DNA of 64,000 bases from Marsupella aquatica (lineage: Eukaryota > Plantae > Marchantiophyta). The notes beneath the pieces are model-generated. The model saw nothing but the letters and a program-made list of their open reading frames with translations, was not told the origin of the DNA and made no database searches. Every line of letters starts with the position of its first letter. Position 1 is the stretch's first letter. Positions 18,458-28,631 of this stretch are shown here, one piece after another. The position numbers and the translations under genes were made by a program. The DNA is taken from positions 6,534,234-6,598,233 of the forward strand of contig OZ316894.1 of NCBI GenBank assembly GCA_973895155.1, written 5' to 3'.

Positions 18458-18847
18458 AAAGGTGTATTGGAATATAAGTGGAGGTTACTGATGAAATACA
18501 ATGGCTTTTACAGCACTATAAGAATGGAATAAATTAACCATGCTAGCACAATTACGGATGTATGTACAATTGTCACACATCCATCTATTTTGTAGAATGT
18601 TCTAGTGCCACAAATGTAATACTACTCAGTTGGAAAGGATTCTTCATGTGATTCATTATTTCTAAATTGCCCATCAAATGTTAGACAAGAGAATTGTTCA
18701 ATGGACTAAGTGTAACATTCAGCTCATTATGAAATACATTCAAACAATTATCATTGCTGGATGCCAGAACTATGGTACCTACCCGGGTACCTACTTAATA
18801 CTAAATATTTTTTCCATAACATGACAAAGTGGTCCTTTCTCATGTAG

Positions 18848-21044
18848 GCTTTAGGAGAAGAGACACCTCCTTGCAGAGTTGCCTTTTTGTTCTTAACAAG
18901 GGGAGAGGTTGCTTTGGAGCCAATTTGGAGGCGTTTCTTAAAGGCCATGAGGAGTTTTACTCCATTTATGTGCACACTCGTCCAGAATTTTCCTTCACAA
19001 ACGACTCCTTCTTCTATGAGCACCAGGTGCCAAGTGAAACAGCAGAACGTTTTCACATGACACTTGTTGATGCTGTCCACAGGTACCACAGCAAAACTGA
19101 TGTATCAATATCTGTTTGTCTTGCTATCAAAAAGTTTCTTCTGTATGTTGAGTGGAACTTGAGAAATGGAAATTATTAGTATTCCAAGTAAATTGATGTA
19201 GGTCAGAAAAAAAAGGTGAACTGATTTAAGCACATTCGTCTTCTTAGTTTGCTGAGTCAAGTAACACACACATGGGACTCAACGATGAATTCCAAGTTTT
19301 TAAGTCCACACCAGACTCCACACAAGAGATTGAGTATCCCCAATACAACTTAAGGTTCACATTCCCTATGCCTAGCTCTAAAAACAAGAACATCCCATAC
19401 TCAGCCTGTTTAGTCAGAAGCAAGGAAGGTCTCAAATTTGAAGTATACGCAAGGGCATTCAAAGAGGTTTACATGTGTACATTAAGGCTTTACTTACTCA
19501 ACAAAAAGGAAATGTTTGCCCATTCAGAGTGCCTCATAAAAACTAGTTCAACTCTAGATGCAATGAGTCCACGCATTCAGCTCAACCAGCATGGAGAAGT
19601 TCACTTTAGGACCTTGGTGAACTTTCTACAACATCTATAGCAGTTCATGATCTGGAATCAAAAACAATCTCCAAAATAAAGTTTTCAAATTCAGCTCAAA
19701 TAATTGTTGAGTAAATAACCATTTTATGAGGTGTCATAATGTCCTCTAATAGTGACTCAGAAAGCAGATGATAATGTATTCACGTGTTTAGATGAATTAA
19801 TCCAACCAATGCAGGTATGGGTTCCACTGAAGGTAGGATTTTCGAGTTTGCTTAATTTCAGTGCGCAAATTAATAGTGTAGTAGTATGGTTACTCAAACC
19901 AGTGAACTCGTCTCATCCACAGAAGGGTTGTTATCCTAGGCCCGTGAACAATGGATTTTGGGTCATTCTCCCTCCTCCCTCGAAATGTATGCTCTGCAAA
20001 AAGAGGTAGCCCCAGGCTGGCAGGAGTGGTGCCCACCCATATCAATCAATTCACTACTTTTCAGTCAATTAATGAATGTGTTTGACATGGATTGAGAGTA
20101 GGCCAAGATAGAGCAGAAAGCTGGCTTTTAACGGTTGAAGTTCATACTTTGTTGACATGGTACTTGTGTAGGTTGTTGGCCCACGCTATCCTCGATCCCA
20201 TATATGGAGCCACAAATTCATGGTTTGTTTTGGCATGTGAGGCTACCATCCCAATTCGGTCTTTCAAATTCACATACAATAATCTTATGGAGTCCCAACA
20301 CTCCTTCGGGAATTCATTTAAACCACACGATCGGCCCCTCCTATGGTTTGAATTTACAAGTCAGAAACCATTTCCCAGAGATCAAGCACGAAAGGGTGAA
20401 ATGTGGTGGGCAATGAAACTTCGTCATGCACTCATGGTACTGGAGGATTGGGACCTATATTACAAACAAGCGACTTTGCATCTGGTATTGTGCGCCTGAT
20501 GAGCAATACATTCCGACTCTGTTAGGTACGTGTGTATCATCACCTATATTACAGAAGGCCAAAGCCCAGCTATGCTTGTGAATTGCATTTCTCTGTTGTG
20601 AAAAATTTGTAATCTGTTTTCAGGATTGCAATATCCTCATTTGATTCTCCCCACTCCCTTGAGAGAGGTCCCGCTTAAATGAGCTTGGACATACTGACTT
20701 TTCTATGGTGATTTGACACAGGTATGAAAGATCCAGAAGGCATTGAAAATAGAACGGTGCATTATGTCAATTGGGGAGGAAAGCATGTTTCTTCTCCCAT
20801 TGTACACGAAGCTAGCGACCTGACAGCTGACTGGTTTATAGACATTCAGAGCCGTACCATTGATCGAGATGGGCAATACTGCGACACCTCCCTGGATGCA
20901 CAACGAAGTAAGACCCTCCGAGCATCCCGAAATTGCTACTATAATGGAGTTGCAAATTCCACTTGCTTTCTCTTTGCAAGGAAAGTTACACGGGTCGCAA
21001 GAGACCATCTTGAGAGTTTACCAGAAAGCGTTTTAGAATATTAG
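18848..21044 (+). pseudogene. Core-2/I-branching beta-1,6-GlcNAc transferase-like (GT14-like/DUF266, BC10-type) gene with two frameshifts; exons 18848-19082, 20172-20525, 20722-21044; 5' part not found
   Basis: Family motifs VAFLFLTRG…W, KGHEEFYSIYVH, RLLAHAILD, FVLACEATIPIRSF, RKGEMWW, CAPDEQYIPTLL, NRTVHYVNW and CFLFARK are present with intact splice sites. The frame changes at about 18936 and about 20470. Confidence 0.85.
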
Positions 21045-22074
21045 CTTCGGGTAAACGTACAATGTGAGAGAACTGTAAGATCCGCACTAGATGTTCATTA
21101 GCAAAACTTTTACATTCTGATTTGTTTTCCAACCTGGTAAAGTGTGCTGCGGGTTCCAATCAGATACGGTCAATACCAATTTGACCTCCTTCGTCTTCAA
21201 ACTCAGAAGCAAAATGTAACATAAACTCTGAGTTCGCACAGAATCTCATGAAAGAATCTCAAATCAAGCTGAACTTAACAAGTAGATCAACTCCGAGTTC
21301 GCCCAGAATCTCGTGAAGGAGGTCTGTGGGAAAAGTGGTGCATATTTATACTTAGCGGGAACATTTCCTGGTGGGGCTAATTGCTGGTTTTGCCTCAGGA
21401 CTCTTTTACTTGTCCTCAGTGTTCTTCTCTTTTCGGACTTTTGTCGTTTGGAAGTTCTCTTGGTGCATGTGATTTTACTTGCTTCCTCGAGCGGCTGAGC
21501 AAATTATTGACATCTCATTTGTATAAAATACTTTCCAGAAACTTATGTTGTGTGAGATAGACATTTCTTTAGCTCAAAAGTTGGTATCATTCAGTTTGGC
21601 GATTTGTGCAAGTAAAGTTAACACACTTGACAAAAAGGGCAACTGAGGTTAACTGAAGTAGAAATCAACTGGTGCTAATGAAAACTTGGACACCATTGCG
21701 ACTGCCAATCAAGAATCCGGTGACAAGAAATGTGCAATACATACGTCACGCCAAGTAAAAGGACAAGAAAGAATCAACCATGATTTATTATCGTGGATCT
21801 TACAGGAAACGTCCACCTATGAGAACAGAACGCATTCCCAGAAGATGAATGCATCCTTGTACTTGTCCATTAAATCTCTCTCCTGATCCAAAAGCAACTC
21901 TTAAAACACTATCCAGTATTAATCACAAGTTACATCCGATTGCGCCACTGCTCTTCATTTTTGTTCCTAGTAAGTGCCAAACAAAGTATTCATGGCTTCA
22001 GCGACACGAGTCCCTCCATAGACGTGCCCTAAACGGCAGGAGGAAGATCCCAACTCACAAGTTCTGGAGAAAGG

Positions 22075-22190
22075 CTACTTCTTTTTGTGGAGCAAGTAAG
22101 TAGCAACTCCCCCCGCTATAAATACAGCTGGGGATCTAGCTAAAACTGCTCCTGCAATGGTGGCTGCTATTCCTACTCCAAGTGCTCCAT
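22075..22190 (-). CDS. FIS1: FIS1 alternative (distal) last exon encoding a second tail anchor
   Basis: It has the same acceptor TTCTGGACAG|ATGG and the same phase as the proximal last exon. It encodes DGALGVGIAATIAGAVLARSPAVFIAGGVATYLLHKKK*. Confidence 0.75.
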
Positions 22191-22298
22191 CTGTCCAGAA
22201 ACGAAACAAGGCAAAGATATTACTTTGCGTTTGTATGTCTGTACTTAAGGGCCACCACTTAGCGAGCTCACGGTTCATCTCAAAGATCCCAGTCAAAT

Positions 22299-24060
22299 CT
22301 ACTTCTTGCTCTTGATAAGCAGAGCTGCAACTCCACTAGCTACAATACCAACTGCCGCAGCCGCTATCCCTAATCCAATTGCGCCATCTGTCCAGAACAT
22401 AGTTGATGTGTCGGTTAGCTTAATGAGGTAGCATCCAGTCAAAATGGTGAACTCTTACCCTTGAACTCAAAAATCAAGTCTGTAAGACACTCACCCTGTG
22501 CAATTTTGTCCTCGATCATTTTCTTCAGTGACCGAGCTTGCCGAAAATCAGGAGCAATCTGCCAATGCGAGCACGTCAGTCGAAGCCCAGACAATCAGCT
22601 GCCATTTCGCTTTCACTAGTGCGGTTTCTCGAGATTTACTACCCTTATCGAACTGCAAGTCTTTATTGTAGGGTTCCATGAGAAGCTAGTCATTTGGCAC
22701 TAAAATTCCAATGAGCTGATGCGATATATACAGATCGACTGTTTACGTCACACGTCGTACGCAATGCACAAAACACCCAGAAGCAAAATACTCAAGCTAA
22801 AATTCCTGCTGGATGGCGGAGTTCACTATGAACGAAAGTAATTCAGGGTCGGTTGTCAAAGTTGCTGACAGGATGGGATAAAAATTACCTGGAGTGCATC
22901 ATCAACCAACCGTCGACTTCTTGTGTAATCACCGGCCCTAAAGTAGCCTACTGCTAACAAATATAATATTTCTCTCTTTTGAACAGCGTCCCCGTTAGCT
23001 CCCAAAGACGCTGCAAACAAAAATTTCGAAAAGTGAACAAACTTAATCAGTGACAAAATTTTCTTCTTCCCGAACTCAAGCAGACTATCACCAGAAGTCG
23101 TTGACAAGAAAAGAATCCGACGGCCGGGAGTTGGTTCCCAGACGACAGGGTTAAAAAACTATAGTTAGATATCCATACATACCTGAGAGCATTGCGATCC
23201 CGCGCTGTACATCTACAGTTTGAGGGGAATGCACCAAGGCCCACGCCAGCCTCATGATACTCTTATTTCTATCAGTTTGGCCCGTAAGACCTGCTCCCTC
23301 TTGAGCGGCTTCATGTTCACATTCCTGCAGAAGGTAACGTAACCTTTTCAAAATTGAGATCTGAACCACGAAATTTTCTGAGTGCAACAAATGAAGACAA
23401 ACTAGGAAAGTTCCACCAAACAAACAAAGTCAGTCCAGCTATGACACCAAATTCTCCTCCCACTATTCCTCCTTTGAACCAACCCAAAAGTATGCAGGAA
23501 CTTCCATCTGTCCCTCTGTACTGTAGCCCGAAACCAGGCTTCAGTACGGTTAACACCGGAATGAAGATCTATCCATCGATCCATCAGAGCATTTTCACAG
23601 CGAGAGATTATCAGCCAGCTAGCCACAGGATTTGAATACAATATAGCCTGAGTTGCTATTTGACAATTTGGCATGACAGTCATATTCCGAGGGACAGAGC
23701 TCCTTAGACAAAACCAAAGTTCAGGAATGAGGAGACTATGTACTCTCTAAGTCTCCAGACTGAGAGACAAGCACTCGAGAGTAATCTACAGTGACTTGAT
23801 CTCGGAGAAAATCGAATGGCAAGTCCTCGGCACCTCTCCAACCACACCGACACACCGATTGACCTAAAGAAACCTAAAAAAAAAACACCCGACGGGGACT
23901 AATGCGAAATCTAATTTAAAAAACCACCGCAAATTGCAACATTGATAGAGAACAACAGCGTCGACGAGAGCATGCTTACGATGATCATATCCGAATCCGA
24001 CCAAGGCAGGGCATCTCCCCCTGAAAACTTCGCAATGATGTCGTCGACCCATTTCGGCAT
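22299..24060 (-). CDS. FIS1: Mitochondrial/peroxisomal fission protein FIS1; exons 24060-23980, 23324-23183, 23010-22889, 22558-22495, last exon 22387-22299 (proximal isoform)
   Basis: LPWSDSDMII/ECE…SIMRLAWALVHS…DVQRGIAML…KREILYLLAVGYFRAGDYTRSR…IAPDFRQARSLKKMIEDKIAQ/DGAIGLGIAAAAVGIVASGVAALLIKSKK* gives the Fis1 TPR-like domain plus a tail anchor. All junctions are GT-AG and in phase. Confidence 0.93.
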
Positions 24061-27496: not shown

Positions 27497-28013
27497 TAGC
27501 TCTGAAGAGATTTGCAGTACTAGCGCATCGATACTACTCAGCGCAGGAAAGTGAGCGAAGTAAGAGGAGGAAGAAGTGCGGCCTTCCTGGCCAGTAGTCA
27601 ATCCCGCAATCCCGTAATCTGGCGAAGCCGATTGACCTAACGTTCTTCTGCCCTTCGTCGTCCGAGCAGAGTAGAGCTTTTGTTAGTGTTACGGACAACA
27701 GCAGGCAGGGCGGTGCACTTCTCCGCTGTTGACGACAACGCAGATCGGTCGGTAGACGCTATCGGACACTCCTAGGGCTCGGTTGTTGCTCTCTCGCGGA
27801 TCGGAGAATCGGGCAAGTTGAGGTTGCTCTCGGTTTCTTTCATCACGAGCGAGCGAGAGATCGAACTCGGTGGGTTTGGTGTGTCTAGGACAAAGTTTGG
27901 GAGAGGATTATCGAAGTTGTATCGGCAGAGAGAGAGGGGAGAAGGAGATAGAGAGAGAGATTGCCTCTTGGGGGTGGAAGACGTCGTGGTGAAGCGAAGG
28001 ATTTTAGAAAGAA

Positions 28014-28631
28014 ATGTCGATCAATCCGGAGTATGATTATCTCTTCAAGCTGCTCCTGATCGGGGACTCGGGCGTGGGGAAGTCATCGCTGCTGCTCCGG
28101 TTTGCCGACGACTCGTACCTGGAGACCTACATTAGCACGATCGGTGTGGATTTCAAGATCCGGACGGTGGAGCTCGACGGAAAGACGGTGAAGCTTCAGA
28201 TCTGGGACACGGCGGGGCAGGAGCGCTTCAGGACGATTACGAGCAGCTATTATCGGGGCGCACACGGAATCATCGTCGTGTACGACGTTACAGATCAGGA
28301 GAGCTTTAACAACGTGAAGCAATGGTTGAACGAAATTGATCGGTACGCGAGCGAGGACGTGAATAAGCTGATCGTTGGGAATAAGTCCGATCGCGCCAAC
28401 GACAAGGTGGTGGACGCGCAGACGGCCAAGGCCTTTGCGGACGAAGTAGGTATCCCCTTCCTTGAGACGAGTGCGAAAAGCGCGATCAATGTTGAGCAGG
28501 CGTTTATGACCATGGCTGCGGAAATCAAGAGGAGGATGGCCAGCAAGCCGACCATGAACGCTGGAAAGCCCGCCACAGTGCGGATGAACGGCCAGCCTCT
28601 CGCGCAGAAGCAAGGATGTTGTTCCTCATGA
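28014..28631 (+). CDS. RABD: RabD/Rab1 (Ypt1) small GTPase, 205 aa, intronless CDS
   Basis: [66 protein letters not shown] and a C-terminal GCCSS prenylation motif. Confidence 0.97.

Follow-up and report, generated by a model that had tools for sequence, protein, structure and literature searches.

Splicing that alters the membrane anchor of a tail-anchored protein has been described for mammalian ALDH3A2, a single gene whose C-terminal splice choice yields FALDH-ER and FALDH-PO (PMC5450235). Human capping protein beta, an example of the "multiple poly(A) site" type, has homologous last exons in tandem that agree in phase and are similar in length, and the same source describes strict mutually exclusive exons as an internal cluster flanked by further exons (PMC3228551). 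In plants, mitochondrial tail anchors including those of FIS1A and FIS1B are reported to use a dibasic motif (PMC4154396), and in a review on dual targeting FIS1 is handled as a single protein with two locations (PMC9549241). The FIS1 of Marchantia, whose tail is of the type called A below, is reported to surround mitochondria and to overlap in part with a marker of peroxisomes (PMC5496855). For monotopic proteins of the ER and of lipid droplets, a hydrophobic hairpin with a proline at its centre is described as typical (PMC12687448).

The window analysed here, 64,000 nt of the liverwort Marsupella aquatica (contig OZ316894.1), carries on its minus strand a FIS1 gene with two last exons in tandem, A and B. 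As with FALDH, one gene would offer a C-terminal splice choice that alters an anchor region. FALDH keeps its transmembrane domain (TMD) and changes the charge of its tail (-1.1 versus +9.1; PMC5450235), whereas FIS1 here keeps the charge and would have its hydrophobic segment replaced by a duplicated and remodelled copy. Retargeting is proven for FALDH and putative for FIS1-B. The exon pair resembles that of capping protein beta, but in the proximal form of FIS1 the distal exon seems to be part of the UTR, which points to alternative acceptors with one 3′ end. We consider it probable that a duplicated last exon and a choice of acceptor give rise to either FIS1-A or a FIS1-B predicted to have a bent anchor: the last exon is duplicated in tandem, and the single donor of exon 4 would be joined to one or the other of two acceptors that lie 197 nt from each other. 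Splice-switched tails and homologous terminal exons are already known kinds of arrangement; for a duplicated FIS1 last exon in plants, no report was found in a literature search whose coverage of subscription journals was small.

The gene begins with coding exon 1 (23980..24060, ATG at 24060), followed by exon 2 (23183..23324), exon 3 (22889..23010) and exon 4 (22495..22558). The translations of exons 2 and 3 exceed the Pfam cutoffs for Fis1_TPR_N (PF14852, 40.5 bits, cutoff 25) and for Fis1_TPR_C, which starts in exon 3 (PF14853, 37.9 bits, cutoff 25.3), and thus identify the protein as FIS1. All introns between coding exons 1–4 are GT-AG. X1, a sequencing run of relatives whose kind we guessed as RNA, contains contigs from which all four introns are missing, with breaks that coincide with the intron boundaries or lie a few bases off, and with joints at 23323/23979, 22558/22889 and 22387/22495. 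Exon 4 provides a phase-1 GT donor for both last exons. Intron 4 up to acceptor A (22388..22494) measures 107 nt. Last exon A (22299..22387), which encodes the single-helix tail anchor, contributes 29 aa including the split codon and is spliced in two X1 contigs. It is separated from last exon B (22075..22190; 38 aa including the split codon) by a 108-nt spacer (22191..22298) that would be 3′ UTR in form A and the end of the intron in form B. The protein is 165 aa long via exon A and 174 aa via exon B. Downstream of B lies an out-of-frame relic reading Q-N-L-stop (22055..22066), which matches how tail B ends in Calypogeia fissa, within a likely shared 3′ UTR (21784..22074) that has an AATAAA at 21789 and one-mismatch hexamers at 21965 and 21959; X1 record 1 reaches 21869.

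The sequence-only reading had described two homologous in-frame last exons, and their coordinates, phase and translations were confirmed. Both exons start in phase 1 and end K-K-TAG, and the final 10 intron bases are identical ahead of A (22397–22388) and B (22200–22191). Together with these bases the two copies form a 38-nt direct repeat of 87% identity, 197 nt apart. The local DNA alignment of A with B scores 82; 1975 random 200-nt windows score 21 on average and 42 at most. Across the 30 aligned codons, stop included, eight are identical, nine synonymous and 13 non-synonymous, so that the earlier description of the changes as largely synonymous or conservative holds mainly for the first ten codons. 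An AG-free stretch of about 30 nt precedes both acceptors (29 nt at A, 30 nt at B), as in two of the three other introns of the gene, and the pyrimidine tract is stronger at acceptor B, at the 3′ end of the spacer (14/20), than at acceptor A (11/20). The identity of the 10-base acceptors despite many diverged synonymous exon sites may reflect selection on the balance between them or gene conversion. With their homology, shared phase, similar length and intact splice sites, A and B have the make-up of homologous alternative terminal exons. They are not mutually exclusive exons in the strict sense, as both are terminal.

Two other observations were made in the window. On the plus strand, 28008–28631 encodes a full-length small GTPase of RAB1/RABD type (Ras, 223 bits) whose frame is not broken by introns. 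As introns are usual in the RABD genes of plants, this gene may be a retrocopy. Two further plus-strand stretches, 18820–19179 and 20086–20499, match the Core-2/I-branching enzyme profile (PF02485, 26.6 and 39.2 bits) at partly overlapping profile positions and could represent a split, duplicated or decayed glycosyltransferase gene.

The FIS1 of Marchantia polymorpha is encoded by one gene (Mapoly0147s0019). Compared at the protein level, it resembles the gene in the window in its TPR core (67% identical) and in tail A (24 of 28 residues identical, against 16 of 28 for tail B); unlike the window's gene, it has no B-type tail among the listed proteins. A search with full-length FIS1 gave 445 matches, and tails were judged among the 120 listed. 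Leaving aside the leafy liverwort C. fissa, 118 of the 119 other listed matches have a single-helix A-type tail and one has no readable tail, so that in land plants the anchor of FIS1 is almost uniform. The RSP insertion that characterises tail B occurs in none of these 118 tails, and neither a second last exon nor an RSP-broken tail was found among the listed Marchantia, moss and vascular-plant proteins.

With tail B as query among longer proteins, one match was obtained from 248 candidates, the FIS1 of C. fissa. Its cluster comprises two genes, both with models ending in tail B joined to a core that is 87–89% identical to that of the window (119/136 and 121/136). Set against 67% for the Marchantia core, this makes the window likely that of a leafy liverwort. 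The two C. fissa models are gene predictions, and as predictions they imply an exon 4-B junction; we assume that they stem from the assembly of 10.1101/2025.04.01.646537, where a recent genome duplication in C. fissa is reported and according to which RNA-seq of the species is available. An A-type C. fissa FIS1 protein was not found among the 120 listed of the 445 matches. Another B tail is P0209, a 49-aa JGI/IMG gene call that was the sole match (E 5e-6) in a search of 1.84 billion representatives and is 59% identical to tail B. It keeps RSP, the basic end and the intron-side letters of the acceptor, and these letters suggest that its acceptor is similar. RSP is invariant in all four aligned B tails.

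A metagenome scan with the FIS1 alignment, in which 80 of 98 loci were kept, yielded no RSP-type tail in the 64 loci with a tail match (for the remaining 16 the DNA retrieved did not include a tail), and a metagenome scan for tail B produced 112 pattern matches, none of which was confirmed. Nine genomic loci with Sphagnum-like tails, some of them likely the same gene, have one tail and no second one in the 0.5–2.3 kb downstream. Since the B-type tail was not found in these other FIS1 proteins and loci and the Marchantia tail is nearer to A, the comparison indicates that A is ancestral and B derived. The last exon was likely duplicated within the liverworts, after their split from the mosses. 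In loci L007 (1702) and L025 (1151), 44 nt of the FIS1 tail exon recur almost exactly some 1 kb further downstream, with no matching acceptor; each copy is likely a captured fragment or a chimera.

The two tails differ in their hydrophobic segments. Tail A has a 23-residue hydrophobic run (GRAVY about 2.35) and ends KSKK, which is the layout of a single TMD with a short basic tail. Tail B proved to be nine residues longer and to contain the RSP break that had been read from the sequence; it consists of 16 and 13 hydrophobic residues split by RSP, its best window of 19–23 residues has a GRAVY of 1.75, and it ends HKKK. Summed values on the Hessa scale are about 0 for A and +4.4 to +5.0 for B. 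The charge is about +3 in both tails, each of which ends with three lysines. Both also fit the plant dibasic motif, with two basic residues within 0–4 of the C-terminus and no following Glu, and the dibasic end therefore does not separate A from B. Neither tail, at about +3, has the markedly higher charge of peroxisome-specific tail anchors, for which values of +4.9 and +9.1 are reported in mammals (PMC5450235).

AlphaFold2 modelled the four B tails as two helices, 2–18 and 20–36, with a break at residue 19 (pLDDT 81, pTM 0.37, no membrane modelled), and straight helices fit this model poorly (rmsd 7–8). In the full-length model the tail is disordered, with a pLDDT under 50 for 143–177. A fold search with the 37-aa B-tail model was uninformative (best Z 4.3), the ESM Atlas gave no usable match for tail B, and Pfam gave nothing above cutoff for the B tails. 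The central proline within the hydrophobic stretch, present as RSP in all four B tails, is shared with the monotopic hairpin proteins ANKRD22 and UBXD8 of the ER and lipid droplets (PMC12687448). In tail B basic residues follow this stretch. Tail B shows no sequence homology to these proteins; its hairpin topology and droplet targeting are predictions. The anchor of FIS1-B is thus predicted to form two short helices bent at the conserved RSP. FIS1-B would carry the same cytosolic TPR domain on a segment that bends or forms a hairpin so that both of its ends face the cytosol, and the changed anchor would shift the host membrane, to one of ER or lipid-droplet type, or alter how stably FIS1 sits there. 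Going by this modelled shape, we tentatively propose, at somewhat less than an even chance, that the bent or hairpin anchor changes membrane preference, targeting or topology, or stability.

Both forms could instead be made and reach the same organelles, with B being redundant or a weaker anchor that tunes the amount or half-life of FIS1, which we regard as rather unlikely. Such an arrangement would agree with the three lysines and the expanded dibasic motif at both ends (PMC4154396) and with the Mpfis1 knockout, reported to be without a growth or mitochondrial phenotype (PMC5496855). However, a nine-residue insertion with RSP that occurs in 4/4 B tails and in 0/118 listed A-type tails is hard to explain by redundancy.

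The sequence-only reading had proposed that the choice of last exon or of poly(A) site yields one mitochondrial and one peroxisomal adaptor. This we find quite unlikely, although tail charge and TMD hydrophobicity are reported to steer tail-anchored proteins in mammals, FALDH splicing switches between ER and peroxisome (PMC5450235), and the lower hydrophobicity of B could shift the balance. The split is left unsupported by the equal charge of A and B and by the dibasic motif that they have in common. Moreover, the A-type FIS1 of Marchantia is found on mitochondria and in part on peroxisomes (PMC5496855), and a second tail is therefore not needed to reach the latter. Arabidopsis FIS1A and FIS1B offer no model for such a split, since each of them is reported to occur at mitochondria, peroxisomes and chloroplasts (PMC5496855). 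The bent or hairpin anchor is favoured over the division between mitochondria and peroxisomes.

The poly(A) part of that proposal is likewise at odds with the contigs. In both abundant X1 contigs exon 4 is spliced to A, and the transcript then continues unspliced through B, in record 1 as far as 21869. No hexamer within one mismatch of AATAAA occurs in the spacer; contigs by their nature do not map transcript ends. Because the A-spliced contig runs through B and the spacer is free of AATAAA-like hexamers, it is likely that two 3′ acceptors compete within transcripts that end at the same place, and that the choice is not between separate poly(A) sites. FIS1-B would be reached by skipping acceptor A, and FIS1-A and FIS1-B would share the downstream poly(A) region. 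The term mutually exclusive, used for the two exons at the outset, holds at the protein level and does not describe the relative's transcript, where the A form has B within its 3′ UTR.

The expected junction 22495>22387 was seen in the relatives' X1 contigs, whereas 22495>22190, from exon 4 to B, was not found in the contigs of four runs (X1, X3–X5), where only X1 has spliced contigs and rare variants are dropped. FIS1-A would be the commoner form in X1, the sole RNA run seen. X1 record 4 (22495–22918, depth 10) represents a third related FIS1 sequence in which intron 3 is retained and intron 4 spliced; it stops 14 nt beyond the junction and fits exons A and B equally, with one mismatch to either. 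The X3–X5 runs show no joints at FIS1 intron boundaries, and X3 has no coverage across both last exons. In these DNA runs, 22424–23020 is represented by divergent intron alleles with indels, such as a 4-nt insertion after 22942, which suggest two haplotypes, homeologues or mixed relatives.

Three other mechanisms were considered and rejected. For RNA structure as the selector, there is no stable fold over 22040–22500 (z -0.23) and no convincing inverted repeat. Stop read-through from A into B would be out of frame and meets a second stop two codons further. An A/B hybrid through an internal GT of exon A has no donor-like site of at least 5/8 in the coding part, and the candidate GT is altered in both X1 genes.

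An open frame of 38 codons in B has a probability of about 0.09 of arising by chance and is weak evidence alone, and the case for B therefore rests on homology and conservation across species. Absence or degradation of the distal exon in relatives had been named as an outcome that would speak against a second tail; an in-frame B is instead present in C. fissa, X1 records 1 and 2 and P0209. Tail B is identical to both C. fissa models at 33 of 38 residues (87%), on par with the core (119/136). In X1 record 1 (depth 482), exon B differs from the window at 5 of 113 nt, giving three synonymous codons and one conservative A>V codon, and positions 22128–22210, across acceptor B and including the last 20 nt before it, are unchanged. 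The spacer (10/108) and the downstream UTR (31/186) differ at 41 of 294 positions when pooled, significantly more than exon B (Fisher p = 0.005); the comparison of exon B with the spacer alone is not significant (p = 0.19). Exon A differs at 7 of 89 nt, which is not significant against non-coding sequence either (p = 0.15). X1 record 2 (depth 111) comes from a more distant gene in which A is followed, after a spacer longer by one base, by B in frame, and its two listed substitutions yield residues present in P0209. The extreme end of B is labile: the stop follows KKK in the window, C. fissa continues with QNL or QDL and P0209 with RW, and X1 record 1, which does not have the window's TAG, reads on for seven codons and ends QDL like one C. 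fissa gene. From these comparisons both exons look selected as protein-coding sequence, in line with the initial impression, and both are present in relatives; we hold it very probable that B is a spliced coding exon.

Alternatively, exon B may be untranslated, as a 3′ UTR element or a slowly decaying duplicate, with the C. fissa models mispredicted. Its presence in contigs only as 3′ UTR and the variable stop codon among relatives would fit, but the frame, the pattern of hydrophobic residues and RSP are retained where protein identity is down to 59%, the changes in exon B are mostly synonymous and 22040–22500 lacks the stable fold of a structured element, which leaves this highly doubtful. 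It is extremely improbable that B is translated alone from the 3′ UTR of the A transcript as a small peptide from an in-frame ATG at 22278: the frame of B has no stop in the 48 codons before the acceptor, and in X1 record 1 it likewise stays open and keeps the ATG, and P0209 was called as a stand-alone 49-aa ORF, but the Met of P0209 is at a different place, the spacer of X1 record 2 is one base longer, and the spacer codons of X1 record 1 in the frame of B show six non-synonymous changes and one synonymous change, so that the coding signal starts at acceptor B.

For annotation the exon pair is a warning, as the C. fissa models have only tail B and the transcripts seen, those of X1, carry A. 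The job of plant FIS1 is itself unsettled, because the Marchantia knockout has no mitochondrial defect. With the same TPR domain, the same tail charge and a different hydrophobic segment, FIS1-A and FIS1-B would be a natural test of how far the sorting of tail-anchored proteins in plants depends on anchor shape as opposed to charge. It is unlikely that leafy liverworts evolved a splice switch by which FIS1, otherwise a protein whose tail anchor spans the bilayer, becomes monotopic with a hairpin. If it were true, a DRP3 adaptor would come to sit on a new surface (lipid droplets, ER subdomains or the liverwort oil body, for instance), and FIS1 would have a function beyond the fission of mitochondria and peroxisomes.
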